Origin: Patescibacteria group bacterium
GTDB taxonomy: Bacteria; Patescibacteriota; WWE3; 0-14-0-20-40-13
DNA length: 64,000 nt
Assembly: GCA_018896215.1 (NCBI GenBank)
Contig: JAHINB010000003.1
Coordinates: 3,776-67,775, forward strand
Reading direction: 5' to 3'
The translations under genes and the position numbers were made by a program. Under the pieces are notes generated by a model. It made no database searches. It was given only the letters and a program-made list of their open reading frames with translations, and was not told where the DNA came from. Positions 7,989 to 55,494 of this stretch are shown piece after piece; within the stretch, counting starts at the first letter, position 1; each line of letters opens with the position of its first letter.

Positions 7989-8018
7989 CGAGATTATAAT
8001 TAGCCCATCCTTCGTTCC

Positions 8019-8041: not shown

Positions 8042-8088
8042 GGCATTGTAAATTCTAAGTTCGCTGTTGCTCTCTAAGACTTTACAAT

Positions 8089-20147: not shown

Positions 20148-20150
20148 TAT

Positions 20151-20528: not shown

Positions 20529-20531
20529 AAT

Positions 20532-20891: not shown

Positions 20892-20897
20892 AATATT

Positions 20898-21512: not shown

Positions 21513-21518
21513 TCAATT

Positions 21519-21869: not shown

Positions 21870-21871
21870 TT

Positions 21872-22219
21872 ATGAAATTAGCTGTTATTACAAACCCCGC
21901 TCTTCCCTCCGGATCGTCGGTGCAAACCGCCTCGGGTTTTGCTAACTATGTTTCGATTGCTCTGCGCACCATGTACATTATCGGTGGTGTTGCCATGACC
22001 GTAATTTTAGTTTATGGGGGACTCATGTACATTACCAGCGTCGGCGACGATAAAGCGCTTTCTAAAGCTAAAAAAATTATGACCGACGCTATTATTGGCA
22101 TTATAATTTTGGCTTCTACCATTCCCATCGCTAAAATTTTAGAAAGTATTTTTGGCTTAAATATCTTTAATATTAGTTTTCCGGCTTTTTCTGATTTTAT
22201 TGGAGTTGGAGGAACTTAA
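21872..22219 (+). CDS. Pilin-like protein, array member 7
   Basis: Core ...GGLMYITSVGDDKALSKAKKIMTDAIIG... Confidence 0.6.
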   Translation: MKLAVITNPALPSGSSVQTASGFANYVSIALRTMYIIGGVAMTVILVYGGLMYITSVGDDKALSKAKKIMTDAIIGIIILASTIPIAKILESIFGLNIFNISFPAFSDFIGVGGT

Positions 22220-22220
22220 G

Positions 22221-22922: not shown

Positions 22923-22996
22923 TTCCGAATGCTTGCAAAGAGATTAGTTGTTAGTTACAATGATTAAAGTTTAACTTGGGAGGTGAGTAAATTACT

Positions 22997-23410
22997 ATGA
23001 ACTTCAAAAAAATACTCGGATCGGTGTCGCTTGCCACAGCAACCGCCTTGTCTTTGGTCAAAGGTGTGTTTGCGGCTGGTGTGGATTTGTCCATACAAAC
23101 AGGAACTTTTCCAACTGGTTCGCAAAGGTCGTTTGGAAGCTTTTTTAGCTTTGCCATCAGAATACTGTTTGCCTTGGGCGGAATCCTGATGCTGGTCTTT
23201 TTGATTATGGGTGGGATTCGCTACATTACCAGCGGAGGCGACAAATTGCAGGCGCAAGGCGCCAGAGACATGATTACCAACGCTTTAATTGGAATCATTA
23301 TTATTGCCGCATCTTACGCTATAGCAACTTTGCTGAATAGCTTGTTTGGAATTGATATCTTTAATGCTACAATCAGTATTCCAATGACCAATCCTGTTGT
23401 TTCACCATAA
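22997..23410 (+). CDS. Pilin-like protein, array member 9
   Basis: Strong GGGAGGTGA SD, a clear signal peptide (MNFKKILGSVSLATATALSLVKGVFA), and core ...GGIRYITSGGDKLQAQGARDMITNALIG... Confidence 0.6.
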   Translation: MNFKKILGSVSLATATALSLVKGVFAAGVDLSIQTGTFPTGSQRSFGSFFSFAIRILFALGGILMLVFLIMGGIRYITSGGDKLQAQGARDMITNALIGIIIIAASYAIATLLNSLFGIDIFNATISIPMTNPVVSP

Positions 23411-25177: not shown

Positions 25178-26359
25178 GTGGGTTACACTGTACCTAACAT
25201 GATAAAAAGACAAATAATCTTGCCTCAAAATACAAGCTTTTTTCTTTTCGGACCACGCGGTACTGGAAAATCTTATCTTATAAAGGAGCGTTATCCTAAA
25301 TCTGTGTACATAGACTTACTAGAATCCGATACATACCGACAGCTACTAGCAAAACCAGAGAGATTAAGGGAATACGCAACATTAAACAAGAATCTTCCTG
25401 TAGTTATTGACGAAATACAAAGAGTTCCAAATCTATTAAACGAAGTTCACCGCCTAATCGAAAACGAAAAGATAAACTTTGTACTTACTGGATCGAGTGC
25501 TAGAAAACTTAAAGAAACGCAAGCCAATTTACTTGCAGGTAGGGCATTAAAATACAATCTATTTCCACTAACTCTTTCGGAGATAGGGAAAGATGTATCT
25601 TTAGATAGGATTTTAAAAGACGGTCTATTGCCAACTATTTACGACCCTAATAAAAATATCGATCCAGCTAAGTATCTGGAGAGCTATGTACAGATTTACC
25701 TAGAGGAAGAAGTTTTACAGGAGGGTTTAACTAGAAACTTAGCCAATTTTTCGCGTTTCCTAGAAATTGCAAGTTTTTCTCAAGGGCAACAACTAAATGT
25801 GTCAGAAGTAGCAAGAGAATCATCTATAAACAGAAAGGTTGCTGAATCCTACTTTAGAATTTTGTATGATTTACTAATTGCTTACGAACTTCCAGTTTTT
25901 AAAAAAAGAGTAAAAAGAAAACTGGTATCTCAAAGCAAGTTTTATTACTTTGATGTCGGAGTTTATTCCACAATAAAGCCAAAGGGGTTTTTGGATAGGA
26001 GAGAAAATGGAGAAGGCATACTTTACGAAAGCCTTGTTCTCCAGGAAATTGTGGCTACCAACTCTTATCTAGGCTCAAAATACGAAATTAGTTACTGGAG
26101 AACAAAAAGTGGTGTCGAGGTAGATTTTGTGCTTTACGGGGAAGACAAATTAATTGCAATAGAGGTTAAAAGAAAAGATAATATTTTAAAAAGTGATATT
26201 ACTGGGTTGTTAACATTTAAAACCGATTATCCTATGGTAAAGTCGTTTGTCTTTTACGGAGGAGATAAGATATTAAATATAAATGGTGTTATAGCTATAC
26301 CAATAAAAGAGGCTCTTTTGAACTTAACGGAGATATTCCAAGGAAGCTATCCAGGTTAG
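25178..26359 (+). CDS. AAA+ ATPase, AAA_14/DUF4143 family (paralog 2)
   Basis: Walker A GPRGTGKSYL and Walker B VVIDEIQ, with a DUF4143-like C-terminus. Confidence 0.8.
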   Translation: MGYTVPNMIKRQIILPQNTSFFLFGPRGTGKSYLIKERYPKSVYIDLLESDTYRQLLAKPERLREYATLNKNLPVVIDEIQRVPNLLNEVHRLIENEKINFVLTGSSARKLKETQANLLAGRALKYNLFPLTLSEIGKDVSLDRILKDGLLPTIYDPNKNIDPAKYLESYVQIYLEEEVLQEGLTRNLANFSRFLEIASFSQGQQLNVSEVARESSINRKVAESYFRILYDLLIAYELPVFKKRVKRKLVSQSKFYYFDVGVYSTIKPKGFLDRRENGEGILYESLVLQEIVATNSYLGSKYEISYWRTKSGVEVDFVLYGEDKLIAIEVKRKDNILKSDITGLLTFKTDYPMVKSFVFYGGDKILNINGVIAIPIKEALLNLTEIFQGSYPG

Positions 26360-26785: not shown

Positions 26786-27967
26786 CTAAAGAACAACTGG
26801 TGATAAAAACCCTGGTTTTTCCAGAAATCTTTTTGAGACGACATAATTTTGAGATATTCCAAGTTCTAAAGATAAAGTGGAGAGTTTGGAAAAATCCCGC
26901 ACTGTTCCAGTAAGTTTTATCTCGAAAGCAATATGTTTATCTAAAATAGCGTCAATCTCGGCGGTATTGCGTTTATTATAGAAACTGATTTTATTGTAGC
27001 CCGAAAGTTGGTTTATAACAGCATTCTCAAATACCTGTGCTTCGCTCACTTTTCCAATCACATTCAAAAGTCCAGTGTCCGTAAAGAAGACCTTTTTACC
27101 TCCTGCTACGGCTCTATCAATACTATTGCTAAATCTTGGCAAAAGCCGAATAAAAAATGTCCCCTGCAAAAATTCAAGAAAACGATATATCTTTACTCTA
27201 TCAATAGAGAGCTCACTGGATAAACGGGTTACATCAAGCATTGACCCAACTCGGGGAACCAGAAGTAAAATCATATCTCGAAGTTCTCGAATATCTGTGT
27301 AGTCTGATAATATTTTAATATTTTTTTCAAAAAACGATGCGAAGATATTTTTGAGAACCATCACCTTCATATTTTTATCCTCTGTTGTTACCACTTCAGG
27401 AAAGCCACCGTATGTGAGAAAATCATCATATTCTGCAACACGCGCTTTATGAGTAAAAATACTATTTTTACTTGGCGCATCTTGTAAAGTAAGATTTAGA
27501 ATTTCCTTTAGAGAAACAACATCTCTAAAGTAGAGATATTCTTGGAAGCTTAATGGAGGAAGTTCGTACAAGAATTTACGACCAGATAAAGACTCGGGAA
27601 ATAGGGTTTTTAAGTAATAGTTGGAAGAACCTGTTAGATAGAATTTAACACTATAATGGTCGATTAGATACTTAATAACTTTAGTTATCTCAGGGAAATT
27701 TTGAATTTCGTCAATAAACACAGATAAATTACTAGCCTTTTTTCCCATGTCAGTAAGTCTTTTATAGATTACTCTGTAATCTTCGTCTTCAAATATTTTC
27801 TGATCGAGTGGGTTACCAAAATCAAACCACAATTTTGGCTCTTTTACTTCTTCGTATATCTGGCGCATTAGAGTTGTCTTTCCGACTTGTCGCATACCAG
27901 TAATAAGAAGTGCGTTTTTATGATTGAGATGTTTTATTAATTCGTAATACAGAAGTCTCTTTTTCAT
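26786..27967 (-). CDS. AAA+ ATPase, AAA_14/DUF4143 family (paralog 3)
   Basis: Walker A GMRQVGKTTL and Walker B VFIDEIQ. Confidence 0.8.
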   Translation of the reverse strand: MKKRLLYYELIKHLNHKNALLITGMRQVGKTTLMRQIYEEVKEPKLWFDFGNPLDQKIFEDEDYRVIYKRLTDMGKKASNLSVFIDEIQNFPEITKVIKYLIDHYSVKFYLTGSSNYYLKTLFPESLSGRKFLYELPPLSFQEYLYFRDVVSLKEILNLTLQDAPSKNSIFTHKARVAEYDDFLTYGGFPEVVTTEDKNMKVMVLKNIFASFFEKNIKILSDYTDIRELRDMILLLVPRVGSMLDVTRLSSELSIDRVKIYRFLEFLQGTFFIRLLPRFSNSIDRAVAGGKKVFFTDTGLLNVIGKVSEAQVFENAVINQLSGYNKISFYNKRNTAEIDAILDKHIAFEIKLTGTVRDFSKLSTLSLELGISQNYVVSKRFLEKPGFLSPVVL

Positions 27968-31269: not shown

Positions 31270-31824
31270 ATGGATTATTTTGACAGAAACAAACTCGTTT
31301 ATTACCCGCTAGACCTGCTCGGAATAAAAAGAGAACTTCCTCTTGTTGCTATTTCTCCAAAATTAAAAATCGCCTCCGTAAACCTTCTTGGAGATGTGGA
31401 GTTGGTAAATGTTTCGGCAAAAGAAATTGCCAAAAAAATTAAAAACTTAGATTATGACATGTTGGTTGGCCCCGAAGTTAAGGTTGTCCCGCTGATTCAT
31501 CAGTTGGCTACAATTACAAAATCTAAAAACTACATTATCTTTAGAAAGAATATTATGGGCTATATGGTAAAACCAGTTATGTCCTTTGGTAAGGATAAAT
31601 TGGTTCTGGATGGGCGAGATGCCGAATTGTTAAAAGGTAAAAAGGTTATTATTGTAGATGATGTGGTCTCAAGTGGTAAAACCACCCATGCCATAATTGC
31701 CCTTTTAAAAACCCTCAATACCAAAGTTGTTTGTGTAGTCTCAATATTTAAACAAGGCGATGATGAGATGTTAGATATTCCAAACTTTATTTATTTAGCA
31801 AAACTTCCCCTTTTAAAATCTTAA
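31270..31824 (+). CDS. Type I phosphoribosyltransferase (APRT/purine PRT-like)
   Basis: PRPP-binding motif KVIIVDDVVSSGKTT. Confidence 0.65.
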   Translation: MDYFDRNKLVYYPLDLLGIKRELPLVAISPKLKIASVNLLGDVELVNVSAKEIAKKIKNLDYDMLVGPEVKVVPLIHQLATITKSKNYIIFRKNIMGYMVKPVMSFGKDKLVLDGRDAELLKGKKVIIVDDVVSSGKTTHAIIALLKTLNTKVVCVVSIFKQGDDEMLDIPNFIYLAKLPLLKS

Positions 31825-32198
31825 ATAAGTTTGTAACGCTTTCGCTTCGCGAAACATTTTAGTATTTTTTCTCTAATCTTGTTATAGAAACTAGTTGACT
31901 TGGCTAGTTTAATAATTTAATGTAAGGTTGTTAGGATTACATTACAATATCCCTCGCCGAGGGAAAAAGCAGATGCTTAACTATAAATTGGCAAAATTAA
32001 TGACCACCTGTTTTTGGGTTTTTACCGAGGGTGGTTTTTTAGTCTCTAGCACTTTAAAAACTGAATATCTCATTAATTAAGCGGTAGCAAAATGCTCATC
32101 TCTTTTGAGTTGGCTATTTTGCTATCGCTTAAGCGTGGCTCCACAATTACTTTGTGGAAAGACAATTCCACTTTCAGTTCAGTTTTAGGAGGTTTTCC

Positions 32199-33287
32199 AT
32201 GTCTCGCTCAAAGATCGCTGTGTTGTTCGGCTTATCCCTTCTCGTGCTCATGAGTTCGTGCGCGAGTCCTGCCACCCCACAAGTGGTGGAAAAGATCGTT
32301 GAGAAGGTGGTCGTGGTCACTGCACAACCAGTTCCTGTAATCAAGCTCGTGCATCTCAATGTCCCGCTAGGGTGGGTAAACAATGACGAGTTCGTGGCGC
32401 TACAGGTGGCTCAAGCCAAGGGGTTCTATGCCGAGGCAGGCCTCGATGTCAACTTGATCTCTGGCGGTGGCTCCACCGGGTTCGATCCTCTGGTTGCCAT
32501 CATGGGTTTCGATGACAGTATTCGGATCGGTGTGCCGGCGGCAATGAGCTTGGTCGTCAAGGCCAAGTCGGAGGGTATTGATGTGGTAGCAGTGGCTGCC
32601 CTGACTCAAGAAGAGCCGGGCGGTTTCATTGCTCTTACCAAGTACGCCCCCCAGGCCACCGGGCTCTGTGACTTTAAGGGCAAGGTCGTCTCCATGCAAA
32701 CGGAGGCGACATGGTATGTAGATGCACTCGGAAAGCAATGCGTCACCGGTGCCCTAGTTGCTGGCGAGGACTTTACCGTCGTGCCGGCTGGTTGGACACC
32801 TGATTGCCTTCTGGCCACCGGCGCCAACCGTTGCGATTTTTATTGTGGTTGGGCGACCAACCAGGTGTTCGGTCTCGAGCAACAGGGGTTGAAGCTCGGA
32901 GTGGACTTCCAGTTCTTTCTGGCGAGCAAGTATCTGCCGTTTCACTATGCTGATGTCATCGTGGTGAACGGCGCCTGGGCCAGGAAAAACCCGGAGATCG
33001 TTCGTGGCTTCGTTCAAGCCTCGATGAAAGGGTTGCAATATACCCTCGATCATCCTGACGAAGCGGTACAGATTTCTGGTGCGGTACCGGGGATGGATCT
33101 GGCTCACGCCACCTGGCGTATCCCGATTCAGAACAGACTCGTTACCAACGAAGACACCGCCAAATTCGGTGTTGGGTACATCGATGTGGGCAAGGTTCAG
33201 GATATGATCAACCTTCTCGCCGAGAAGGACCAGATCAAGACCGAGTTCGATGCCAGCACCGTCGTCGACAGCTCGTATCTGAAGTAG
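32199..33287 (+). CDS. ABC transporter substrate-binding lipoprotein, NMT1/THI5-like (NitT/TauT family); part of the GC-rich island
   Basis: Lipobox LLVLMSSC and an NMT1-like periplasmic binding fold. Its GC-rich codon usage is unlike the flanking genes. Confidence 0.7.
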   Translation: MSRSKIAVLFGLSLLVLMSSCASPATPQVVEKIVEKVVVVTAQPVPVIKLVHLNVPLGWVNNDEFVALQVAQAKGFYAEAGLDVNLISGGGSTGFDPLVAIMGFDDSIRIGVPAAMSLVVKAKSEGIDVVAVAALTQEEPGGFIALTKYAPQATGLCDFKGKVVSMQTEATWYVDALGKQCVTGALVAGEDFTVVPAGWTPDCLLATGANRCDFYCGWATNQVFGLEQQGLKLGVDFQFFLASKYLPFHYADVIVVNGAWARKNPEIVRGFVQASMKGLQYTLDHPDEAVQISGAVPGMDLAHATWRIPIQNRLVTNEDTAKFGVGYIDVGKVQDMINLLAEKDQIKTEFDASTVVDSSYLK

Positions 33288-33320
33288 TTCTATGTTCTAC
33301 TATGAAATATGGAGGGTGAA

Positions 33321-34094
33321 ATGAACGCACTCGGGATTCAAGATCTGACCGTACGGTTCGGTAATCTAATTGCTCTTTCGCAAGTATCGTTGACAGTGCA
33401 AGAGCATGAGATCGTCGCCCTTATCGGTCCATCTGGATGCGGAAAGTCCACCCTCTTGCGTGCAACAGTCGGCATTGTGCCTGGCATGGTGCCGACTGCT
33501 CACTTAGAAGGCGGGATTGACCTCTTTGGAAAATCGCCGATCGAACGCCACAACGGCGAGGTCGATATGGTTTTCCAAGAGTCTTGTCTCCTGCCCTGGA
33601 GAACAACCCAAGCCAATATCAGGTTGGGTTTGGAAATTCTTGGCAGGAATGCAAATAACGGCACTTTACCGACCATCCTGGAAGCCATTGGGCTGACAGA
33701 CTTTGCCAATTGTAAACCCCGCGCGCTATCAGGTGGTATGCGCCAACGCGCCAGCTTGGCCACATCACTTGTGACTCACCCAAAACTCTTACTCATGGAT
33801 GAGCCTTTTGCCAACCTCGACTCCTTAACCAGAGAACAGATGTGGCAACTCGTAGAGCATCTACATTTGGATGATAAAATCCAAGCCGCATTGTTGGTAA
33901 CCCACTCCATTGAAGAGGCTGTTGCTTTGGCTGATCGGGTACTGGTAATGAGTGAGCGACCCGGTCAAATCATCGGTGAAGTGGTTGTAAGACTTCCTCG
34001 TCCTCGGATCACTCCAGAGGGGTTGTTGGTCGAAGGCTTTGGGGCGGTAGCCAACCAAGTCCGTCGTTTCATCCGCCACGGAGGTGAAGTATGA
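33321..34094 (+). CDS. ABC transporter ATP-binding protein (NitT/TauT family); GC-rich island
   Basis: GPSGCGKSTLLR, LSGGMRQRASLA and LLLMDEPFANLD motifs. SD GGAGGG precedes the ATG at 33321. Confidence 0.85.
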   Translation: MNALGIQDLTVRFGNLIALSQVSLTVQEHEIVALIGPSGCGKSTLLRATVGIVPGMVPTAHLEGGIDLFGKSPIERHNGEVDMVFQESCLLPWRTTQANIRLGLEILGRNANNGTLPTILEAIGLTDFANCKPRALSGGMRQRASLATSLVTHPKLLLMDEPFANLDSLTREQMWQLVEHLHLDDKIQAALLVTHSIEEAVALADRVLVMSERPGQIIGEVVVRLPRPRITPEGLLVEGFGAVANQVRRFIRHGGEV

Positions 34095-34834
34095 AAAGGT
34101 CACAATGGCTGGTACCGCTGGTGACCCTCACCTTCCTGCTTGTGGCCTGCGAAGTGTCACTGACGCTGGCGCGAGTATCAACCTTCATTTTCCCCAAGCC
34201 AACGCTGATCGTCAAAGCGTTGGTTGAAAACTGGGGTTGGATCGTTGCCAACTTGCAAGTCACAGCCATGGAAGCAGTTGTCGGTTTCGCCCTTAGTATT
34301 GTGCTTGGGATAACACTGTCGACGGTTTGTCTGTTTGTCCCGCAAGCCGAGAACCTCGTCGTGCCTTTCGCCATCGCCATTCGCAATGTGCCGTTTGTTG
34401 CTTTGGCGCCGATTCTCTTCATGACGATGGGATATGGTCCCTGGCCCAAGATCATCATCGTTATGATCGTTAGTTTCTTTCCAATCATGACCAATCTTAC
34501 GGCTGGATTTGCAAGCGCAGAAGTCGCTCAAAAGGAAAGATTCTTTGTATGGCGAGCGACCCGTTGGCAGATGTTTGTCAAGCTTCAACTGCCTTCGGCT
34601 ATCCCGTATTTTGTGGCAGGGTTGGAAATCGCGGTTAGTAACATCATCATTGCCGCGATCGTTGGCGAATTGATGGGAACGACCAAGGGCTTAGGATTGG
34701 TCATTATTATGGCCGTGTCCCAGTACCGGTTTCCTTTGCTGATGGCAACCGTAGTGGTTACGACAGCACTGTCAATTGTGACTACATGGTTGCTACGCCA
34801 GGCAATGCGAATTGCCTTTTCACCTTGGAATTAA
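34091..34834 (+). CDS. ABC transporter permease (BPD_transp_1, NitT/TauT family); GC-rich island
   Basis: Six TM helices and an EAA-like loop region. Its start overlaps the ATPase stop. Confidence 0.8.
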   Translation: MKRSQWLVPLVTLTFLLVACEVSLTLARVSTFIFPKPTLIVKALVENWGWIVANLQVTAMEAVVGFALSIVLGITLSTVCLFVPQAENLVVPFAIAIRNVPFVALAPILFMTMGYGPWPKIIIVMIVSFFPIMTNLTAGFASAEVAQKERFFVWRATRWQMFVKLQLPSAIPYFVAGLEIAVSNIIIAAIVGELMGTTKGLGLVIIMAVSQYRFPLLMATVVVTTALSIVTTWLLRQAMRIAFSPWN

Positions 34835-34846
34835 GGAGAGTACACC

Positions 34847-35764
34847 GTGGACTACCAATCAATCCTGGATGTTTGTAGAAGTCAGTTTGAGGCTGATGCG
34901 GCGCGAACCGCATCTGTCGGAGGTTCCGGTACCCTTGCACTGGACAAGCGTGGAGGCATCGGTTTTCCCGAGGCCCTCACTTGTGTTTGCAACGATCGGA
35001 TTCTTCGATTCGAAGAGGTGTCAACGCCATTTGGGGATGTTCCGATGGTCAAACTCTTCGCAGTCAACGGCCAACCGGTCGTGCGGATTCCGATGCACGG
35101 TTGGCGATTGCCAGTGGCGACGCTCGAACACACTCAAGCAACCTTTTGGCTACTGGATCAGCTTGGCGTTCATCAAGTGCTCGTTGACGCTAGCGTTGGT
35201 GGGATCGGAGCCAAACCCATGGATGTCGTCATCCCCGATGATGTCTACAACCACGAGCCTGCCAAGATCGCTATGGCAAAGTTGGCCTTTGAATTGGGAA
35301 GAGACCCCTGGGTTCGGATGTATCAACCCTTCTGTCCCCGCTTAAGAAGCAAGTTGGTTACCTCAGTTCGTCAGGTTAAGACGGAAGGTCATGAACTTGG
35401 CGATCTCGTCGACGGCGGGGTCTACTGGACCACGCCTCTTGGTCCGTTTGAAACGGCTTTCGAGATAGCCACCTTCAAGACTCTTGGGGCTACCATCGTT
35501 GGCCAATCATCGGGGCAGGAAGCCCTAGCCGCTCGTATTCTTGGAATGTGTTTGGCTGTGGCCAACCCGGTTGTTAACTTTGCCGAAGGGCTCAACAACG
35601 CAGGCTGGTCTGGGGACAAAGGCATGGATTCCATGTACGAAGCCATCTCTATGCCCATGGCCCTCATGGTTTACTACACTCTTGAGCGAATCGTCAGCCA
35701 GACCCGCACCTGCGACTGCCAAACCATTGCTCACAGCCCTGATTTAGCTGGGCTGACATCGTAA
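34847..35764 (+). CDS. PNP/MTAP-family nucleoside phosphorylase-like protein; GC-rich island
   Basis: The C-terminal ...GATIVGQSSGQEALAARILGMCLAVANPVVNFAEG... parallels the MTAP/PNP family-1 active-site region (G..VG.T.VPE..LA.E.G.C...A.V.N.A). GTG start with an AAGGAG SD. Confidence 0.5.
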   Translation: MDYQSILDVCRSQFEADAARTASVGGSGTLALDKRGGIGFPEALTCVCNDRILRFEEVSTPFGDVPMVKLFAVNGQPVVRIPMHGWRLPVATLEHTQATFWLLDQLGVHQVLVDASVGGIGAKPMDVVIPDDVYNHEPAKIAMAKLAFELGRDPWVRMYQPFCPRLRSKLVTSVRQVKTEGHELGDLVDGGVYWTTPLGPFETAFEIATFKTLGATIVGQSSGQEALAARILGMCLAVANPVVNFAEGLNNAGWSGDKGMDSMYEAISMPMALMVYYTLERIVSQTRTCDCQTIAHSPDLAGLTS

Positions 35765-35783: not shown

Positions 35784-36314
35784 GTGTCCAACATTCAAGT
35801 CCTAGCTACCGAGAGGCAAATCAGGCAAGCCGTGAGAAGGATTGCTCGAGAAGTCTCTCGGCGGTACCAGGAGGAGTCGATTCTTCTGGTTGGAGTTCTC
35901 ACCGGCGCTTTCGTTTTCATGGCGGATCTGGCGAGGGAGCTCTACCGTATGGGGATGACAGATGTCGAAATCGAGTTCATCGACATATCTTCGTATAGTG
36001 GTACGGAGTCTGGGCAGATCCGTTTCGATCGTGACCTGACCGTTCCCATCAGCGGTCGGCATGTGGTGATTGTGGAGGATATCATCGATACCGGGGCAAC
36101 GCTGGCGTTCCTGTTGAAGCTCCTCGAAGTCAGGGAACCAGCCAGTTTGATTGTAGTTGCCCTGTTCAACAAGGTCACCCGGCGGGTTGAAACCCTCCCG
36201 TCAGAACGGATCATAACGGGAATTGACCTGCCTAACAAGTTCGTGGTCGGCTACGGTCTTGACCGTAACGGAAAGTTTCGGCATCTCCCTTTTGTGGGGA
36301 TTGTCGCAAGTTGA
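35784..36314 (+). CDS. hpt: Hypoxanthine(-guanine) phosphoribosyltransferase; GC-rich island
   Basis: VVIVEDIIDTGATLAFLL PRPP motif and an HPRT-like length. GTG start with an AGGAGGAA SD. Confidence 0.85.
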   Translation: MSNIQVLATERQIRQAVRRIAREVSRRYQEESILLVGVLTGAFVFMADLARELYRMGMTDVEIEFIDISSYSGTESGQIRFDRDLTVPISGRHVVIVEDIIDTGATLAFLLKLLEVREPASLIVVALFNKVTRRVETLPSERIITGIDLPNKFVVGYGLDRNGKFRHLPFVGIVAS

Positions 36315-36437: not shown

Positions 36438-37871
36438 GTGCCTAATTACAAAAAACGAAAATTAAAATCGCAAAAGTTTCTGGAGCCAAAAAGGCTCCTT
36501 TTTTTTGTCCCAAAGATATTAAAATACGGTTTTGTTTATAAAGTCTCCGCGGGTTTGCAAATTGATTTAAACACGGTTATTAAAAAGACTCCCAAAGGCT
36601 TTGTTGAACAACACTTATGCGATCACAATTGCAGTTTAGACTGCGGTAACTACCAATGCCCCGCCGCGTTTACAGAAAACAAAGGGGCAGATCCAAAAAG
36701 TTTAATGAGTTTAGAGGAAGTCCAAAAATCTCTTAAGGTTGCATTAGAAGGGCTAAAGCTGGCTAACAAACTGTTTTTGGAAAAAGAATTTAGCAAGTAC
36801 TGTGCCGACTTTAAAATACCAGGACAGGTTCAAGACGAAATCAGGGAAACGCTAAAAAACGGTGGTTACGAGCTTAACCTTTTTGGAGGAAACCCCGAAC
36901 TCCACCCAAACTTTTTGGAAATCGTAAAAAACGCCAAAGAAATGGGTTGGGTCGTTACGGCCACAACGACAGGTAAAAAGTTCATCTACAATGACAACTT
37001 TGTTCGAGGGTTTTTGCGGAACCCACCCGATCTTTTAGCTATGTCGGCGGACGATTACGAAGACATTAACGAGCTGAACGAACTTCTTAAGATGAATGCC
37101 GAGGATCTTAAAAAATATTGGCAGAAGGCTAATCCGCTTTACGGTCAAAGAAAAAAGGCTTTCGAATCTTTATATGTAGCTAAAATTTCTAAATCGCTCA
37201 AGAGCTTTCCTAAAATACTTTTTAATATCGTAATCCATCCCGGAAACCTGCCCCACATTTTCAAATTTATCAGCGCCTTAAGGCAACGCTTTCCCAATAT
37301 CATCATAAACCCCTATCCGGCGCAATCCAGCTTTTGTTACGAAAGTCCTGTTTGGAAAACAAGGCACCTCTTACCTTTAGAAAAGGTAGTCGATTACATG
37401 ATCCAAAACCAGACAAATTCCAGGGAGAAAAATTTTGTTTCCAGGCTTCATTATTGGCTTGTTTTAAAAAGCGTGTTTCTTACCAAAATGAGCAACAAAG
37501 ACAGAACAAAACTTCTTAGTGGATGGGGAATCTGGAGTTGTTATAAAAATAGCGGGGCGGGGAGATACCTTCAAGCGGGATCTTCAAACATCATAAAAAA
37601 AGAAGTTTTCAGAGTGGGTGGTCATCCGGGATGTTTTTGGAATCGCCAGACTGTAACAGAAGCATCGAAACAACTCTGGACTATGGACAAAAAACAAGTG
37701 GTTCGTTATTTAATTAATTCTAAAATTACGCTCCCAAAAACCGCGCCAAAACCCTGCCCGGGGTGTATTATGCCCCGCCTGATGTTTGATGGCATTTCCA
37801 CGGAATTAGGGCTTTCCTCTAAATTGATTCCGGCTTATTTAAAGTTACGAAAGGAACATTATGGTTTTTAA
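36438..37871 (+). CDS. Hypothetical protein with an N-terminal Cys cluster (C-x3-C-x3-C-x4-C), possibly a non-canonical Fe-S/radical-SAM-like enzyme
   Basis: HLCDHNCSLDCGNYQCP and later NLFGGNPELHP (GGEP-like). The start codon is uncertain (GTG at 36438 or a later site). Confidence 0.4.
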   Translation: MPNYKKRKLKSQKFLEPKRLLFFVPKILKYGFVYKVSAGLQIDLNTVIKKTPKGFVEQHLCDHNCSLDCGNYQCPAAFTENKGADPKSLMSLEEVQKSLKVALEGLKLANKLFLEKEFSKYCADFKIPGQVQDEIRETLKNGGYELNLFGGNPELHPNFLEIVKNAKEMGWVVTATTTGKKFIYNDNFVRGFLRNPPDLLAMSADDYEDINELNELLKMNAEDLKKYWQKANPLYGQRKKAFESLYVAKISKSLKSFPKILFNIVIHPGNLPHIFKFISALRQRFPNIIINPYPAQSSFCYESPVWKTRHLLPLEKVVDYMIQNQTNSREKNFVSRLHYWLVLKSVFLTKMSNKDRTKLLSGWGIWSCYKNSGAGRYLQAGSSNIIKKEVFRVGGHPGCFWNRQTVTEASKQLWTMDKKQVVRYLINSKITLPKTAPKPCPGCIMPRLMFDGISTELGLSSKLIPAYLKLRKEHYGF

Positions 37872-38487
37872 AGTCGACCACCCTTTTATTACAGATTCCT
37901 TAACGCATTTAAGAGACCAGCAAACGGAACTGGCAAAATTTAGAAGGTATTCTAACAAGCTCTGTCAGTTATTGTTTGCCGAAGCAATAAGAGGTTTAGA
38001 TTTTAATGAGGTTGATATTACCACACCGTTGGAAATAACTATCAAATCAAAAAAACTTAAAGATGAGGTGATTATAATTCCCGTTTTGCGATCCGGTCTC
38101 GCCATGCTTTTTGGAGCGCTTGATTTATTGCCCAAATCAAAAATTGGTTTTATGGGGTTAGAAAGGGATGAAAAAACCGCTGTAGCAAAGGAATATTACT
38201 GCAAACTACCTAAAATAAGAGAAAATTCTGTGGTTATTATTACCGATCCGATGTTGGCAACTGGGGGGTCAATTTTGCAGGTGCTAAGAAAGTTACGGGG
38301 CTTTAAACCCAAAGACATAAGAATTGTAAGCGTGGTTTCGGCTCCCGAGGGAATAGCGTTAATTCAAAAAGAGTTTCCCAAGGTGGCTATTTTTACTTCT
38401 GCCGTGGATGACCATCTTAACAATAATAAATATATAGTTCCTGGCATTGGCGATTACGGCGATCGCTATTTTGGAACAAGCGTCTAA
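37861..38487 (+). CDS. upp: Uracil phosphoribosyltransferase
   Basis: IIIPVLRSGLAM, ITDPMLATGGS and YIVPGIGDYGDRYFGT are canonical UPRTase motifs. Confidence 0.9.
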   Translation: MVFKVDHPFITDSLTHLRDQQTELAKFRRYSNKLCQLLFAEAIRGLDFNEVDITTPLEITIKSKKLKDEVIIIPVLRSGLAMLFGALDLLPKSKIGFMGLERDEKTAVAKEYYCKLPKIRENSVVIITDPMLATGGSILQVLRKLRGFKPKDIRIVSVVSAPEGIALIQKEFPKVAIFTSAVDDHLNNNKYIVPGIGDYGDRYFGTSV

Positions 38488-42484: not shown

Positions 42485-43109
42485 ACAACCAGTTCTTTTT
42501 AGTAAGTATCGTGGGAACTATCAAAACTGTAGTTAGAGACCAGAGACCGACCAAGTATCCGGCTAAGACATCAGTTGGGTAATGGACGCCTAAATAAACT
42601 CGGCTAAATCCGATTAGTGTAACCCAAATACAGACACCCATTACGGAATATAATTTAATCGATCTGCTTTTACCGTAACGGGAAATGTAATAAACAATCA
42701 TTCCATAAAGAAAAATATTGTTCATAGCATGACCCGAGGGGTAGGAAAAATCGTGTAGTACCGTCAAAGCGGAAACATTTGGGCGCGGTATCATAAAAAT
42801 TAATTTTAGTGCGTGGTTTGCTATTTCCACAATTATTAGCGACAGGGAAAAAATCACTGCATCTCTTTGGTGTTTTTTAATAACTAAAAATAAAACTACC
42901 AAAAGTGATATCACTATCCCAGCGTATATGTCACCGAGGAAAGAAATCACAGACATCACAGTCGTCAAAAGTGATGTTCGTAAAGAATAAACAAAAAATG
43001 AGAACGATTGATCAAAGCTGTGTGTTTTTCCTGTTAAAACAGCAAGCGTTAGCAGAACGAATAATGAGAGGAGAGTTAGATTTAGAAGAATCTTTTTTGA
43101 GTAAGTCAT
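42447..43109 (-). CDS. PAP2-family phosphatase (undecaprenyl-diphosphatase/phosphatidate phosphatase-like)
   Basis: KxxxxxxRP (KLIFMIPRP), PSGH (SYPSGHAM) and SRxxxxxHxxxD (SRVYLGVHYPTD) motifs. Confidence 0.8.
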   Translation of the reverse strand: MTYSKKILLNLTLLSLFVLLTLAVLTGKTHSFDQSFSFFVYSLRTSLLTTVMSVISFLGDIYAGIVISLLVVLFLVIKKHQRDAVIFSLSLIIVEIANHALKLIFMIPRPNVSALTVLHDFSYPSGHAMNNIFLYGMIVYYISRYGKSRSIKLYSVMGVCIWVTLIGFSRVYLGVHYPTDVLAGYLVGLWSLTTVLIVPTILTKKNWLSKSGLSHLGQFQ

Positions 43110-43720
43110 GAGAAAACGGTTTGAGACTTTTTAAGAAAGAATCGTTTTATTTTCTCCCAATCGTAGTCTTTTAACATTGTAACCTTATCTTGAGCGTCAT
43201 CAAAATAAGTTAAACTTTTAGCCAAATGGATAAAGTTATAATTTTTTTTGGCAACCTTTTCTCTAAACATTTCTAATAACCCATCAAGTGGAATAACTTC
43301 TTGGGTTATAAAATAAAGGTCCACAAAATCTTTTTTAAGTCCTCGACCCGAAATAGCATCCAATTTCATACACCCAACATCTACTGGGTTTGCAATGCTA
43401 ATACCTAAAAAATCATCTGTGGGTTTTAGAAGAGGCAACTCGTAATAAAAAAAGCTTAATTTTGTCCCATTAAAATTGCCCAAGAATGTTTTTGTGGTTT
43501 GCACATCTACAGTTAAAGTTCCAAGGGAAGAAAGGGAATTAACAATTTGGAACAGATCAAAATTTTTGTTGGAGAAAAAGTCCAAATCCTCCGAAATTCG
43601 ATGACCTAGGTTTAACGCCAGAGAGCTACCTCCCGCAAGGTAAAAATCTTTGGCAAGACCCGATTTGCCTAATAAGGCCAGATTTTTTCTAGTTGTTTCG
43701 TTAAGGGCTTTTGGAAACAT
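43106..43720 (-). CDS. Nucleotidyltransferase AbiEii/AbiGii toxin family (second copy)
   Basis: LAGGSSLALNLGHRISEDLDFF NTase motif. Confidence 0.75.
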   Translation of the reverse strand: MFPKALNETTRKNLALLGKSGLAKDFYLAGGSSLALNLGHRISEDLDFFSNKNFDLFQIVNSLSSLGTLTVDVQTTKTFLGNFNGTKLSFFYYELPLLKPTDDFLGISIANPVDVGCMKLDAISGRGLKKDFVDLYFITQEVIPLDGLLEMFREKVAKKNYNFIHLAKSLTYFDDAQDKVTMLKDYDWEKIKRFFLKKSQTVFS

Positions 43721-51476: not shown

Positions 51477-52787
51477 CTATTCCAACCTCTTATATTCTAG
51501 CGATTTTGTTTCAAAGTAGGTGGAGAAAATTTGTGGGATGCTGTTGCGAGATTGAATAGGGGAACAGGTCAAAATATCCACATGCAAAAGCATAAGTTCT
51601 GGCCAGGTGTGAATGGTCATATTGCTTTGACTAAGCACAAAATTAATTGTAATTCCGCCCCCAGGAAATTTTTTGTAGGAGCTGGTAACAGCGTTTAATT
51701 TAAGGTCCTTTAAAACTTTCTCTAGCCTTGCAATCAATTCCTTTTTATTTTCCAAAACCTTAATTGGAATCTCAAAGAGTCTTAGGGTGTGGTGCTCAAT
51801 ATAAGGAAATTTTGCAACGCTGGTATTTTGGTAGGTATAAATATCTTTCTCATTGTAATAAATAGAATCTGCCGTCGTGGTGTTAGTTGTTCTTAAAACA
51901 TAAATTGAGCTTGCGCTTCCAATGCTCTTTGCTCCAAAATAGTGGTTAAATTTGTCAATTTTATCTTCGATGACTAAATTAAAAGAATTGATAATCTCTT
52001 GAATTTTTAGAAACCTCTCGTTCGTCTTAAAGCTTGCTCCAAAACATAAAAAAATGTATTTTCCCTCACCTTTTTGTAAACCCTCAATAGCCCGCCTTAA
52101 AAAGAGGGTAATTCCCATGGGGGTATAGGGTGGGTCGGTAATTACAGTGTCAAAATTTCCTGCTGATCTTAAAGGTTTTCTTAAGTCTGCTTCGACTATT
52201 TTTATCTCCCAACCACGAGATTCCTTCTCATCATTGATAATTTTAATGATATCGGGATCAATTTCGTAAACTGTGGTAAGACTGGGCTTTCCAACTAAAT
52301 TTGCTGTAAGCGAGACCAAATCGTCGTCGCCCAGTATCAGTAGCCTTTTTTTGTCTAACGCCCCCTTGGTTTTCATGATCAGGGATTTGGCAACCGAAGT
52401 TTTGGGGGTGGCAAAAAACTGGTCGTATTCTCTTTTGGCAGTAAGTTTGTGTTTTTCTCTTACGATTTTAATCGACTCTTCAATCGCTACATCATCAAAG
52501 TTTACTAGACTCCAAATGTAGGGAGAAAAATCGTTATTGTTGATGAATTCTTTAGGAAGCCCGTTAATCTTGGTCAATAAGTTTTGGAGAGTCGCTTCGG
52601 GAACGCCAGTTTGTAGAATCAAATCGGAGAACTCTAATTTTCCAGCACTTTTAATTAAATTTAGAACACCTTCCACCTCGGCTTCTTTAAGCCCTGTTTG
52701 TTGTGCTAGTTGTCCGATTATTTTTTCCATGCCTCTGATTTTATCAGAAAGGACAGACTCTTGCGTTTTTGTTAGAAATATACTCAT
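51477..52787 (-). CDS. Fusion protein: DUF43/BpsA-like aminopropyltransferase domain plus a C-terminal AdoMetDC-like (SpeH-type) domain
   Basis: wHTH N-terminus, LILGDDDLVSLTA and DPPYT motifs (DUF43/BpsA-like), then ...GGGITINFVLSQSNMTIHTWPE...HVDILTCS resembling the prokaryotic AdoMetDC core (ES-H-ISIHTWPE...DVFTCG). Confidence 0.5.
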   Translation of the reverse strand: MSIFLTKTQESVLSDKIRGMEKIIGQLAQQTGLKEAEVEGVLNLIKSAGKLEFSDLILQTGVPEATLQNLLTKINGLPKEFINNNDFSPYIWSLVNFDDVAIEESIKIVREKHKLTAKREYDQFFATPKTSVAKSLIMKTKGALDKKRLLILGDDDLVSLTANLVGKPSLTTVYEIDPDIIKIINDEKESRGWEIKIVEADLRKPLRSAGNFDTVITDPPYTPMGITLFLRRAIEGLQKGEGKYIFLCFGASFKTNERFLKIQEIINSFNLVIEDKIDKFNHYFGAKSIGSASSIYVLRTTNTTTADSIYYNEKDIYTYQNTSVAKFPYIEHHTLRLFEIPIKVLENKKELIARLEKVLKDLKLNAVTSSYKKFPGGGITINFVLSQSNMTIHTWPELMLLHVDILTCSPIQSRNSIPQIFSTYFETKSLEYKRLE

Positions 52788-52843
52788 AATAGTTGGTAAC
52801 TCCCCCTTCTTTAAATTAGTAGGAAGATTTGTTAAATCTTGGT

Positions 52844-54193
52844 ATGAAAAAAATTTATGAGGTCATAATTGTTGGCGCTGGTCCCGCTGGTCTTTTTGCC
52901 GGATTAGAGCTTGCAAAACAGGGTGTAACAGATGTTTTAATTTTGGAAAAAGGAAATAGCATTAAAACCAGAACAAAGCAGGAAACCATGTGGGGAGTGG
53001 GTGGTTCGGGAACTTTTAGTGACGGCAAATTGCATTTTAGTTTAAATTTAAGCCAAGAAAGGCTTTTGGATTTTGTAGAAAGAGATGAGGCTCAAGAGCT
53101 TTTGGATTATGTAGAAAGCACGCTTTTGGATTTTGGGGTTACGGCTCCTGTTACCCCAACCAATCTGGAGGATGCTACTTGCTTTGTTAAAAACTGCCAA
53201 AGAAATAACATAAAACTTTATACCCGTAAGTGTCGTCATGTAGGAAGCGATGTTTTGCCTAGTATTATTGGCAATATTACAGATAGTCTTGCGAAATCGA
53301 GGATACAAATAAAACCCAACTGCGAAGTCACGGAGTTTAAAAAGGAGAAAAATATCTTTAATATTAAAACCAACCAGGGAGACTACCGTGCAAAAGTACT
53401 ACTTGTTGCTCCTGGACGAGGGGGAACCAAGTGGCTTCAAAATATTGCCAAAGATTTAAAAATTGGCTATGAATACCAAAAAGTTGAGATTGGCATCCGT
53501 CATGAATTCCCTGCTTCGGTTACCGAGGAACAATCAAAGGTAATGTACGAGGCAATTTATAGTGTACAAACCCCAACTTTTGATGATACCGTTCGGACAC
53601 TTTGCCCTTGTCCTAATGGTCTTGTAGCAGTTGAGGATTACGGGTCTTATATTTGTGTCAACGGGCATTCCAGTTCCAAAAACGAATCCCCCAATAGTAA
53701 TTTTGCTCTGGTGCAAGAGGTGGTTTTAACCGAGCCTGTGGAAAACACCACTGATTATGCAATTTCTATCGCAAAGTTGGCAACAACTCTTGGCGGGGGA
53801 AGACCTTTAATTCAGCGGTTGGCTGATTTGCAGAGTGGTAGAAGAAGCACGCAATCCAGAATTGCCAAAAGCAATATTACCCCAAGTTTAAAAGACGCTA
53901 CCCCCGGAGATATCTCCATGGCGCTACCATACAGAATCGTGAGAAACCTTTTGGAGACGCTGGAGATTTTGGATAAAGTTTTACCGGGAATTAACGCTGG
54001 TTCCAATTTTTTATACGCGCCAGAAATAAAACTGCGAGGCTCCAGAATTATAACCAATAAATTTTTGGAGACACAAATTAAAGGGTTGTTTGTGGCGGGA
54101 GATGGGGCGGGGGTTTCGGGTAACATTGTCGGCGCCGCCGCAACCGGTGTTATCGCCGCAAGGGGAATTAACTCTGTTTTTCTCAAAAAATAG
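52844..54193 (+). CDS. FAD-dependent oxidoreductase (COG2509-like uncharacterized FAD-dependent dehydrogenase)
   Basis: VIIVGAGPAGLFAGLELAKQG dinucleotide-binding motif and the C-terminal FVAGDGAGVSGNIVGAAATG. Confidence 0.75.
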   Translation: MKKIYEVIIVGAGPAGLFAGLELAKQGVTDVLILEKGNSIKTRTKQETMWGVGGSGTFSDGKLHFSLNLSQERLLDFVERDEAQELLDYVESTLLDFGVTAPVTPTNLEDATCFVKNCQRNNIKLYTRKCRHVGSDVLPSIIGNITDSLAKSRIQIKPNCEVTEFKKEKNIFNIKTNQGDYRAKVLLVAPGRGGTKWLQNIAKDLKIGYEYQKVEIGIRHEFPASVTEEQSKVMYEAIYSVQTPTFDDTVRTLCPCPNGLVAVEDYGSYICVNGHSSSKNESPNSNFALVQEVVLTEPVENTTDYAISIAKLATTLGGGRPLIQRLADLQSGRRSTQSRIAKSNITPSLKDATPGDISMALPYRIVRNLLETLEILDKVLPGINAGSNFLYAPEIKLRGSRIITNKFLETQIKGLFVAGDGAGVSGNIVGAAATGVIAARGINSVFLKK

Positions 54194-54300
54194 TTTGCTT
54201 TATGTAACTTATAGCCATTGTTGTTTATCTTGTGTAGATCGTATAAAATTTGGCAGTTCAAAACAACACTAGGTTGCATCACTCACACAAGGAGGAGGAA

Positions 54301-55386
54301 ATGAACACAGGTGCCGTATTGGTAGGGGACGCTTTTTGGGGCGACAGTGGCAAGGGTAAAGGTGCCGCCTGGCTTGCGCTGATGTATAGCGCACAGATAG
54401 TTCTTCGTGGGGGCGGGGGTCCCAACGCCGAACATGGGATCTTTGTGGGAGAGCACTATGTTCGAACCAACCAGCTTCCGCTTAGTTGGATTTTAGCAGG
54501 ATGTCCGATTGCGATTGGGTCTGGGACTGCAGTGGATCCAGTCAAGTTGCTTTCCGAGATGGAAAGATTTGGTCTTGGTTCTGATAGAGTCCACATAGAT
54601 CCCCGTTGCCCTATAGTGGAAAGCAGGCACATAGCACAAGAGGTAGCAGATGCGGATATGGAAGCCATTGGTTCGACAAAGAGTGGGACGGGAGCCACAC
54701 TGGTCGAATTTCTACGACGAGGAGAAGAGGTACGGCAAGCAAAAGATGTACCGCAACTTGCACCACTTATCCAAGATGTTGTGGTACTCTCCAACAAACT
54801 GGCAAGGGATGGGGTTGTGGTCGTTGAGGATGGCCAGGGATTTTGGCTGTCCTCGCGCTATGGAGAATATCCTAATGTGACCTCCAAGAACTGTACAACT
54901 GGGGCCATGATCGATGCCATAGGTCTGGGTTGGAGGTTAATCGGGGAAGTTTGGCTTATGGTGAAATCAAAACCCACGAGAGAGGGGAAGGGTGGTATGG
55001 GAAAATGCAGAGAGCTTACACTAAAAGAGATGAGACGGAGGGGGTTAGTGGAAGCCAGTTCGATTGGGGGTGTTCCCAGAAGGAAAGTTGATGGGATCGA
55101 CTTCGACCTGCTGAAATACGCAGTTATGGTCAATGCACCGACTCACATTGCGTTGACCTTCGCAGAGCACCACGACCCCGAAGTTTCTGGGGTTACGAGT
55201 GCCGATAAGCTTACGCCAAAGACGAGGGAACTCATCGCAAGAGTTGAGAGGGAAACGGGGGTGCCGGTGGGGATGGTCGACACGGGAAAGCAGTTCAACC
55301 ATGTTGTCAGTATCCCCCCGACGATGCCTATTCCCGAGCTGGACGAGAAAACGCTTGCCCGTTTGGCGTCGTATGTAGGGAGGTAG
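54301..55386 (+). CDS. purA: Adenylosuccinate synthetase-like protein, short (archaeal-type length, about 361 aa), in a GC-richer segment
   Basis: P-loop-like GDAFWGDSGKGKG (compare QWGDEGKGK), GGGGPNAEHG (compare GG.NAGHT) and GSTKSGTGAT (compare TT.RGIGPAY). SD AAGGAGGAGG precedes the ATG at 54301. GC is clearly above the flanks. Confidence 0.7.
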   Translation: MNTGAVLVGDAFWGDSGKGKGAAWLALMYSAQIVLRGGGGPNAEHGIFVGEHYVRTNQLPLSWILAGCPIAIGSGTAVDPVKLLSEMERFGLGSDRVHIDPRCPIVESRHIAQEVADADMEAIGSTKSGTGATLVEFLRRGEEVRQAKDVPQLAPLIQDVVVLSNKLARDGVVVVEDGQGFWLSSRYGEYPNVTSKNCTTGAMIDAIGLGWRLIGEVWLMVKSKPTREGKGGMGKCRELTLKEMRRRGLVEASSIGGVPRRKVDGIDFDLLKYAVMVNAPTHIALTFAEHHDPEVSGVTSADKLTPKTRELIARVERETGVPVGMVDTGKQFNHVVSIPPTMPIPELDEKTLARLASYVGR

Positions 55387-55405
55387 ATAGGTAGTAGTGG
55401 CCTTG

Positions 55406-55466
55406 GGGGACACAACGGATACAGCGCTAAGGTAGCGTTCCGTTGCTTGTCCCCTGTTGTTTTTGT
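55406..55466 (+). terminator. Terminator hairpin after the purA-like gene
   Basis: GGGGACA...ACGGA...TCCGT...TGTCCCC followed by TGTTGTTTTTGTGG. Confidence 0.5.
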
Positions 55467-55494
55467 GGTAAAATAGATGCGGAGGTGAGGATTT

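Follow-up and report, generated by a model that had tools for sequence, protein, structure and literature searches.

A short, compositionally foreign PurA-like gene in a Patescibacteria contig: a putative adenylosuccinate synthetase from an undescribed bacterial and phage clade

The window analysed here is a stretch of 64,000 nucleotides from a Patescibacteria contig (lineage WWE3; GenBank assembly GCA_018896215.1, contig JAHINB010000003.1), and it carries on its forward strand a short gene resembling purA, the gene for adenylosuccinate synthetase (AdSS). As a first-pass annotation had proposed, this is an open reading frame (ORF) starting at an ATG at 54301 and encoding 361 amino acids (54301–55386, with the stop at 55384–55386); the frame is unbroken and full-length, and the PurA-like motifs GDSGKGKG, GGPNAEHG and GSTKSGTG are all present. 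A TTG at 54250 is a possible alternative start, but the ATG is preferred because homologues begin 12–13 residues before the WGD motif, like the ATG version. A strong Shine–Dalgarno sequence, AGGAGGAGG (54290–54298, + strand), can be read directly upstream, its GGAGG core ending 5 nt (or 2 nt) 5' of the ATG. Downstream lies a terminator-like element (55405–55469, + strand), a long GC-rich hairpin at 55405–55455 followed by a T/U-rich tract, UGUUGUUUUUGUGG; ΔG is −33 kcal/mol for the 92-nt stretch folded (z = −2.8 versus shuffled sequences), and the element overlaps a promoter-like site of lemA (55447–55474). The promoter that had been assigned to the gene along with these two signals fared less well: a consensus promoter scan found no site at threshold upstream of the ORF, and by eye there is a weak promoter-like site (54221–54249, + strand; TTGTTT at 54221–54226, 17 nt, TAAAAT at 54244–54249; 8/12 match). 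This site sits in the AT-rich, native-composition 107-nt spacer between the PurA-like gene and the upstream gene for an FAD-dependent oxidoreductase (PF21688, FAD-depend_C; 52829–54193, + strand), which is itself native in composition [GC content at third codon positions (GC3) 0.37]. A promoter of its own is weakly suggested for the PurA-like gene, and co-transcription or read-through from the oxidoreductase gene is equally possible.

The encoded protein belongs to the adenylosuccinate synthetase superfamily (PF00709; 140.5 bits against a gathering score of 27, E = 8.4e-41) and has the short, ~340-residue architecture of the archaeal type, being about 70 residues shorter than bacterial PurA (361 versus 431). 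By sequence its best matches in the Protein Data Bank (PDB) are the Pyrococcus horikoshii PurA entries (339–340 aa, E = 1e-60), while bacterial and eukaryotic PurA structures match at ~1e-20. An AlphaFold2 model built from 25 clade sequences (pLDDT 93.6, pTM 0.92) superimposes on the fully ligated P. horikoshii PurA, 5k7x, with TM scores of 0.87/0.93 and a root-mean-square deviation of 1.7 Å, and the top 43 PDB matches in a fold search are all PurA or its relative PurZ. The archaeal-like length noted in the first-pass annotation is therefore right as a description of the architecture. The best NCBIfam model is likewise the short archaeal-type PurA (NF003295/PRK04293), although at 251.2 bits the query falls below the cut-off of 368; it also falls short of the equivalog cut-offs of TIGR00184 (156 bits versus 395.55) and NF002223 (125.6 versus 402).

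Close relatives of the query are sparse. Its own 100%-identical cluster, P0001, is a JGI contig independent of the window; among 5.8 billion clustered proteins the next closest are metagenome proteins of 335–371 aa with 43–50% identity, and the few named close relatives come from Patescibacteria and Chloroflexi. When 1.84 billion representatives were searched exhaustively with HMMER, only 63 clusters reached E ≤ 1e-30. Profile scans of genome and metagenome contigs gave, among the matches listed, mostly canonical PurA, with clade members at loci L013 and L222–L225 and the window's own genome missing from the list. We aligned 156 relatives with four references (P. horikoshii PurA, phiVC8 PurZ, phage Wayne PurZ0 and E. 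coli PurA, the last confirmed as 100% identical in RefSeq) and computed a neighbour-joining tree with bootstrap. Four groups emerge. One is the canonical short PurA of archaea, a second consists of PurZ/PurZ0-like proteins, which carry Ser13, and a third, of Chloroflexi type (‘DSGHS’), has lost His41 in many of its members; the fourth, a large group that holds the query (bootstrap 99), is marked by E40, G42, E273, S298, I300, F331 and K417 (E. coli numbering). The query's clade comprises 105 relatives, all 43–50% identical to it, from Patescibacteria, Anaerolineae and large phage-like contigs, and every element of its signature (N-[AP]-E-H-G, P-T-R-E-G, E-x-S-S-I...R-R-K, T-F-x-[DE], T-G-K) is found in the query. 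Within the clade the query is sister to a subgroup of Patescibacteria and Anaerolineae (bootstrap 72), and it alone among the 106 clade sequences unites the 8-residue form of the aspartate-binding loop (Asp loop) with the [RK]LxSY C-terminal helix and Glu333 of the cellular subgroup, which is consistent with a deep branch that is otherwise unsampled. Among the Chloroflexi-type proteins, one subgroup (P0092, P0101, P0105–P0107, P0110–P0116, P0118, P0120, P0121, P0145), mostly of ~335 aa, has a peculiarity of its own: its members keep Asp13 and the canonical Asp loop but carry His41 to Ala and Asn38 to Gly changes (motif GTNAGAS), and so lack the PurA catalytic acid.

Much of the canonical active site can be recognized in the query. 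In the reference-anchored alignment G12, D13, K16, G17, N38, H41, T129, R143, E221, Q224, T239, S240 and R305 are kept. The catalytic set D13/K16/H41/Q224 corresponds to query D15/K18/H45/Q179, so that all three residues that the first-pass annotation had singled out for checking (Asp13, His41 and Gln224) are present, and the IMP contacts N38/T129/T239/R143 correspond to query N42/T126/T194/R140. Contacts to the IMP 5'-phosphate and base, with R143 contributed by the partner subunit, are listed for Helicobacter pylori AdSS (PMC11276676), whose numbering plus 9 gives that of E. coli. Conservation reaches 90% or more, within the clade as well as within canonical PurA, at eleven positions (G12, D13, K16, G17, H41, T129, R143, E221, T239, R272 and R305), and Asp13 is kept by the query and by 139 of the 156 aligned relatives. 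In the query's own numbering, the motifs concerned are the P-loop G14-D15-S16-G17-K18-G19, N42-A43-E44-H45-G46, G124-S125-T126, R140, Q179, T194-S195, P225-T226-R227-E228-G229, the Asp loop S253-S254-I255-G-G-V-P-R260-R261-K262, T286-F287-A288-E289, T328-G329-K330 and a C-terminal helix at about 349–358 (LARLASY).

Set against this conserved framework are changes that run through the whole clade. G40E (query E44) is fixed in 100% of members, and V273E (99%), G298S (99%) and T/V300I (100% of the 105 members) are nearly or entirely so; T301 and R303 are lost, and further changes are K331F, P417K and D333E, the clade having either D or E at this last position. Of the guanine-contact sites K331/D333/S414 (query F287/E289/D327), the acidic one is kept while the Lys and Ser are changed. 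The Asp loop, variable in its middle part, comes in two sizes: 72 relatives have 14 residues, whereas the query and the other 33 have 8. R305 is kept and position 306 is R or K (R-R-K is invariant in the clade). These positions have assigned roles in characterized enzymes: in H. pylori AdSS the Asp-binding loop is made up of residues 298–303, IMP is touched by V273 and R303, and GDP by K331, D333 and S414–416 (PMC11276676); R303 has the double task of balancing the IMP 2'-OH and binding aspartate, which the tip of the loop also contacts (PMC8342488). The first-pass annotation had raised the possibility of altered activity, which is plausible, although not by way of the residues it flagged: position 14 (query S16, its Glu to Ser change in the P-loop) is free to vary across the family (E/S/G/A/C/N), and its supposed His-Ala-Glu-like substitution is the clade-wide G40E beside a His41 that is present. 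As flagged, these residues are uninformative; the functionally telling changes are G40E and V273E, the rebuilt loop for aspartate and the altered contacts to the GTP base. Earlier work on E. coli AdSS from the Honzatko and Fromm laboratories reportedly places the G40 backbone carbonyl on Mg2+ and assigns V273 and T301 to aspartate recognition.

The genomic neighbourhoods of clade members offer a second line of evidence. In Patescibacteria (L005/L006, GCA_019428825.1; L007; L088/L089) the PurA-like gene lies directly 3' of a PF21688 FAD oxidoreductase, as in the window, the oxidoreductases at those loci being 49–51% identical to that of the window; a 5'-nucleotidase gene is convergent with it at L005, L007 and L088. 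In Anaerolineae (L003/L004 and L013, Brevefilum) it is convergent with a gene for an HPRT-like phosphoribosyltransferase (PRTase). Many members of the short-loop subgroup are carried on contigs resembling large phages, six of them IMG/VR entries. The phage-like contigs with clade members (L092–L099, L302–L304 and the P0079 contig) span 20–170 kb, have a GC content of 0.32–0.36, a median ORF of ~95 aa and 75–93% of ORFs on one strand, and encode Acb2/Tad1 hairpins, GIY-YIG/NUMOD3 and HNH endonucleases, integrases, DNA methylases, primase, dUTPase and ribonucleotide reductase. On them, a gene for a hypoxanthine-guanine phosphoribosyltransferase (HGPRTase; TIGR01203, 164 bits, cut-off 150) lies upstream of and overlaps the PurA-like gene at L092/L094; a GMP-reductase-like gene (~321–332 aa) is adjacent or one gene away at L096, L302/L303 and on the P0079 contig; and a gene for a full-length IMPDH (476.5 bits versus 481.5) adjoins downstream at L097. 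The recurrent partners all make or consume IMP, and no other indirect evidence speaks as strongly for IMP as the substrate as these neighbours do. The phage purine genes look like a module for making adenine nucleotides out of hypoxanthine or GMP, which may serve to supply AT-rich genomes or to counter nucleotide-depleting defences. At L092 two Acb2/Tad1-hairpin anti-defence genes stand just 5' of the purine genes.

These observations make it reasonably probable that the gene encodes a functional PurA-family enzyme which forms adenylosuccinate from IMP and GTP in purine salvage, and which belongs to an undescribed clade and is compositionally foreign to its genome. In the first step, judging from the conserved residues, the enzyme would bind IMP through N42, T126, T194, Q179 and R140' of the dimer partner, together with a purine nucleoside triphosphate (NTP); this is probably GTP, because E289 preserves an acidic side chain where canonical enzymes have D333. 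The γ-phosphate would then pass to O6 of IMP, with D15 as base and H45 as acid, assisted by K18 and Mg2+. In the second step, which is less certain, an amine, most simply L-aspartate, would displace the phosphate to give adenylosuccinate, from which the lyase PurB (not encoded in the window) would release AMP.

Several observations weigh against this assignment. The query lies under the NCBIfam equivalog cut-off for every PurA model; its best PDB identity is 36–40%, the clade is without a characterized member, and a literature search that extended to purA and purB of the Candidate Phyla Radiation (CPR) gave nothing on the clade. The residues that hold L-aspartate and the IMP 2'-OH in canonical enzymes are not conserved: the query's Asp loop reads S-S-I-G-G-V-P against the canonical G-A-T-T-G-R (298–303), an aliphatic residue or Pro stands in place of R303, and V273 (query 228) is Glu. 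Moreover, the search for purB suggested in the first-pass annotation, which covered the window and the clade neighbourhoods, found no purB among window ORFs of ≥200 aa and saw none in the ~15 clade neighbourhoods examined. The same window ORFs include no guaA, guaB or second purA, and among the matches listed for the PurB signature GSS[TA]MPHKxNP in viral contigs, none is one of the six PurA-like contigs.

Such features would suit an enzyme that performs the same first half-reaction, NTP-dependent activation of a 6-oxopurine nucleotide, and differs in its second substrate or sugar specificity. It may, for instance, use ammonia or another amine to give AMP or an N6-substituted AMP without PurB, or act on a 2'-deoxy nucleotide. 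We regard such a change as unlikely, though it is the main rival of the preferred reading. The fixed clade-wide changes fall exactly at the aspartate and 2'-OH contacts (PMC8342488, PMC11276676), the pocket gains the carboxylates E40 and E273 while losing T301 and R303, and the loop in between occurs in two length classes; reduced CPR genomes and phages would, in addition, profit from a one-enzyme route. On the other hand, the retained R305 and R/K306 may still allow some carboxylate binding, E273 could take the place of R303 as the ribose-hydroxyl ligand, and the adjacency of GuaC-like, HPRT and IMPDH genes is exactly as for normal PurA. Phages could use the PurB of their hosts, and the absence of PurB concerns the window and the neighbourhoods. 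Extended to the whole clade, the idea becomes one of PurA-derived enzymes with a rebuilt second-substrate pocket that aminate 6-phosphoryl-IMP with ammonia or another amine, which we consider doubtful. If it held, AMP or a modified adenylate would be made in one PurB-free step, as would suit minimal genomes, and AT-rich phages could turn G into A nucleotides together with the neighbouring GMP-reductase-like gene.

The base composition of the gene sets it apart from its surroundings, as the first-pass annotation had remarked of the local GC. Its GC content is 0.527 and its GC3 0.522, compared with a GC3 of 0.349 ± 0.041 (maximum 0.441) in a background of 50 window genes (z = 4.2). The GC step begins at the Shine–Dalgarno/ATG and stops just past the 3' hairpin (~54280–55460). 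Of 77 greedily called ORFs, only the PurA-like gene (GC3 0.52) and the five genes of a GC-rich cassette elsewhere in the window (GC3 0.52–0.66) lie outside the range 0.26–0.46. Synonymous codon usage, expressed as a log-likelihood ratio of cassette to background, gives +0.016 per codon against −0.233 ± 0.059 (z = 4.2), with the cassette genes themselves, left out one at a time, at +0.03 to +0.28. Amino-acid composition is displaced too, the GARP fraction being 0.315 (background 0.203 ± 0.037) and the FYMINK fraction 0.193 (background 0.322 ± 0.041). At 12 other loci, by comparison, the PurA-like gene fits the GC3 of its own genome (|z| ≤ 1.3), except at L007 (+2.3) and at L089, where the comparison involved two ORFs only. 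The GC anomaly is therefore lineage-specific and points to a gene that came into this genome rather recently, from a source of higher GC. The alternative that the best homologues would be bacterial proteins of the same lineage and of similar GC proved true as regards bacteria and phylum, but not as regards GC.

That the high GC is instead a property of the gene itself, or an assembly chimera, is improbable, but there is something to be said for a process other than simple transfer, in that two highly diverged genomes, that of the window and L101, both carry the other cassette in GC-rich form (see below), pointing to a recurrent and non-trivial process, and the L007 copy is mildly enriched. Against a gene-specific property, the PurA-like gene matches genome GC3 in the 10 other loci with usable comparisons, and here the amino-acid composition is shifted as well in a sequence that forms a deep, unique branch. 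Against a chimera, the GC step coincides with the unit from Shine–Dalgarno to terminator, the frame is intact, and the same protein occurs on the independent JGI contig P0001. The L007 copy (7441–8556, P0016) is a curious case in its own right: its GC3 is 0.42 against 0.36 ± 0.03 in its neighbours, and P0016 is 62% identical to P0004 whereas the adjoining FAD oxidoreductases are 84% identical, a possible sign of quicker turnover in the PurA-like gene than in its FAD neighbour in that lineage too.

Because adjacency to the FAD oxidoreductase is common to distant Patescibacteria, in-place replacement of an older copy 3' of that gene, by a foreign, higher-GC member of the clade, is the simplest and most likely history. 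The donor would most likely be an unsampled higher-GC member of the same bacterial and phage clade, since all relatives are ≤50% identical. Two points temper this reconstruction: the adjacency from which the replacement is deduced is shared by two independent lineages only, and even the closest relatives are just 50% identical. An imperfect 15-nt direct repeat (54219–54233 and 55455–55469, 12/15 matching, T-rich) brackets the GC-rich segment almost exactly and may be chance or a recombination remnant; no integrase or tRNA gene was found near the segment.

An archaeon is very unlikely as the source of the gene. Such an origin might be read from the archaeal best structure match and the best NCBIfam model, PRK04293, and the first-pass annotation had hinted at it, but the archaeal connection goes no further than chain length and architecture, all close relatives being bacterial or phage-borne. 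The 120 best relatives are bacterial or phage proteins with 43–50% identity, whereas archaeal loci from GTDB genomes (Thermococci, Bathyarchaeia) reach just 31–35% and canonical archaeal short PurAs fall on separate branches at ~35–40%; the query's clade, at bootstrap 99, excludes the archaeal canonical group, and E40, E273, S298, I300, F331 and K417 are absent from archaeal enzymes. An archaeal donor is thus rejected on the ranking of identities and the tree, and by its sequence relationships the gene is bacterial or phage, not archaeal, in descent. We give similarly little credence to a decaying or non-functional relic: the missed equivalog thresholds and the odd residues by Q224 (E-D-G-Q-G in the query, E-[SG]-[ST]-Q-G otherwise) could be taken that way, but the ORF is full-length with a strong Shine–Dalgarno sequence and a terminator, its model has high confidence, and every clade-invariant residue is present. 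At eight sites conserved in the clade the query departs on its own, each time by a conservative substitution, and so gives no sign of decay. Least credible of all is an enzyme of the PurZ/PurZ0 type, making the 2-aminoadenine (Z) precursor from dGMP: beside its short architecture, phage relatives and loss of R303 as in PurZ, the query has weak matches to the NCBIfam PurZ model (NF038379) and to PHROG 1211, labelled ‘2-aminooxy adenylosuccinate synthetase’, but the former scores 85.4 bits against a cut-off of 300, the Asp13 to Ser change that defines PurZ and occurs in 100% of phage PurZ/PurZ0 (PMC12884076) is absent (the query's own Ser occupies position 14), the tree places PurZ and PurZ0 on other branches, their structures come no higher than 32nd among the fold matches, and datZ, mazZ and dpoZ were found neither in the window nor at phage-like loci with clade members, so that Asp13, model score, tree position and gene context together rule this reading out.

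The preferred reading, a PurA-family enzyme acting in salvage, gains a setting from the GC-rich cassette of the window. This segment, at 32–36 kb, had been said in the first-pass annotation to hold purine genes, and it does: an ABC importer with an NMT1-type binding protein, ATPase and permease (32154–34834, + strand), a divergent nucleoside phosphorylase of the PNP/MTAP family (34847–35764, + strand) and, as its last gene, a hypoxanthine(-guanine) phosphoribosyltransferase (35784–36314, + strand; TIGR01203, 156.2 bits, cut-off 150), with a compositional shift in the same direction as that of the PurA-like gene. The phosphorylase would release purine bases for the phosphoribosyltransferase, which is likely the pathway partner that supplies IMP. 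A salvage route in this CPR genome would then lead from the importer through the PNP-like phosphorylase and the HGPRTase to IMP and on to AMP, with the PurA-like enzyme at its end. The window also encodes a PRTase of the APRT subfamily (31270–31824), a UPRT (37861–38487) and a ComF-like PRTase. The GC-rich segment had been considered as a possible rRNA operon, which is rejected, as Rfam finds just a tmRNA and tRNAs in the window and the segment is protein-coding. An intergenic leader of ~330 nt (31825–32153) stands before the cassette; among its several hairpins are some with T runs behind them, and it matched no Rfam family at the gathering score.

An orthologous cassette lies at 7399–10930 of L101 (GCA_040961665.1), from an independent CPR genome, its proteins 47–57% identical to those of the window. 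It holds the ABC importer and PNP-like phosphorylase, with the HGPRTase in the window's cassette, and it is also GC-rich (GC3 0.52–0.64 against 0.27–0.42 in its flanks). Both cassettes lie 3' of an orthologous low-GC APRT-like PRTase (42% identical), and the closest relatives of the PNP-like protein are metagenome proteins of ≤68% identity. A cassette that recurs in GC-rich form is not easily accounted for by one ancient transfer, nor by separate insertions. A foreign compositional origin for both GC-rich segments of the window is reasonable. Of the repeated horizontal acquisition of purine genes put forward in the first-pass annotation, the foreign composition of both segments stands; a simple new insertion of the PurA-like gene does not, given the shared FAD adjacency.

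The remainder of the window is typical of CPR bacteria. Its DnaK is 100% identical to a protein of a Parcubacteria/Patescibacteria metagenome-assembled genome at NCBI, with the nearest named relatives in candidate division WWE3 (77%), and the gene content includes a type IV secretion system (T4SS) pilin cluster, FemAB, AbiEii toxins, DUF4143 ATPases, tmRNA, SecDF and a fusion of BpsA with S-adenosylmethionine decarboxylase. This last protein (51477–52787, − strand, 436 aa) joins the C-terminal domain of the branched-chain polyamine synthase BpsA (E = 1e-40) to a decarboxylase domain (E = 3e-15). Three paralogous AAA_14/DUF4143 ATPases (3140–4291, 25178–26359 and 26786–27967) and two AbiEii-type toxin genes (10720–11481 and 43106–43720) in 64 kb are unusually dense for a small genome. 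A run of ~10 small same-strand ORFs at 19224–23410, including a protein with a T4SS-pilin domain (19524–20147), is probably a type-IV-secretion or pilus-like surface gene cluster of the CPR.

The closest well-characterized counterpart of the query is P. horikoshii PurA (PH0438; PDB 2D7U/5K7X). The two have the same fold, both without the insertions, ~90 residues in all, that enlarge bacterial and eukaryotic PurA, and share the P-loop Asp and Lys, N38, H41, T129, R143, Q224, T239 and R305 at 36–40% identity. They differ at G40E, T42G, V273E, K/M331F, D333E and P417K, and in the Asp loop, where the query reads S-S-I-G-G-V-P-R-R-K rather than G-T-V-T-G-R-R-R-R, with T301 and R303 lost; the query, from its separate bacterial and phage clade, also carries an extra C-terminal helix with [RK]LxSY. 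E. coli PurA (431 aa, TIGR00184) belongs to the same superfamily and shares with the query the phosphoryl-transfer residues and the expected role in the branch from IMP to AMP, but the two are only ~22% identical and differ in the Asp loop, at V273 and in the guanine contacts.

PurZ and PurZ0 (6FM1, 7ODX, 7VF6; NF038379) resemble the query in their short archaeal-type architecture, their phage relatives and a non-conserved R303, and phiVC8 PurZ also has an aromatic residue at the K331 position (Phe in the query). Unlike the query they have Ser at 13 and keep a T-T-V-T loop tip and V273; identity is 26–29%, and Z-cluster genes are not near the query. The Chloroflexi-type short PurA-like group (P0096, P0110), a sister group, shares with the query the sequence DAFWGDSGKGK, including Ser14, as well as F331 and K417, but it keeps G40, V273 and a V-T-G-R loop, and many of its members carry H41A.

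To our knowledge, PurA is regarded as near-invariant at its active site, with PurZ (Asp13 to Ser) as the one known departure, a departure that proved to underlie a new DNA base. The clade described here, with at least 105 sequences that curated models leave unnamed, points to a second, sizeable departure from the canonical PurA active site. If its members are ordinary PurA enzymes, they would show that aspartate can be bound by a different structural arrangement, and the clade ought to be included in annotation pipelines; if they are not, CPR purine salvage and the conversion of G to A nucleotides in phages would use new chemistry. In either case, salvage genes that occupy lineage-typical positions and yet have a foreign, high GC content suggest frequent replacement in organisms wholly dependent on scavenging.

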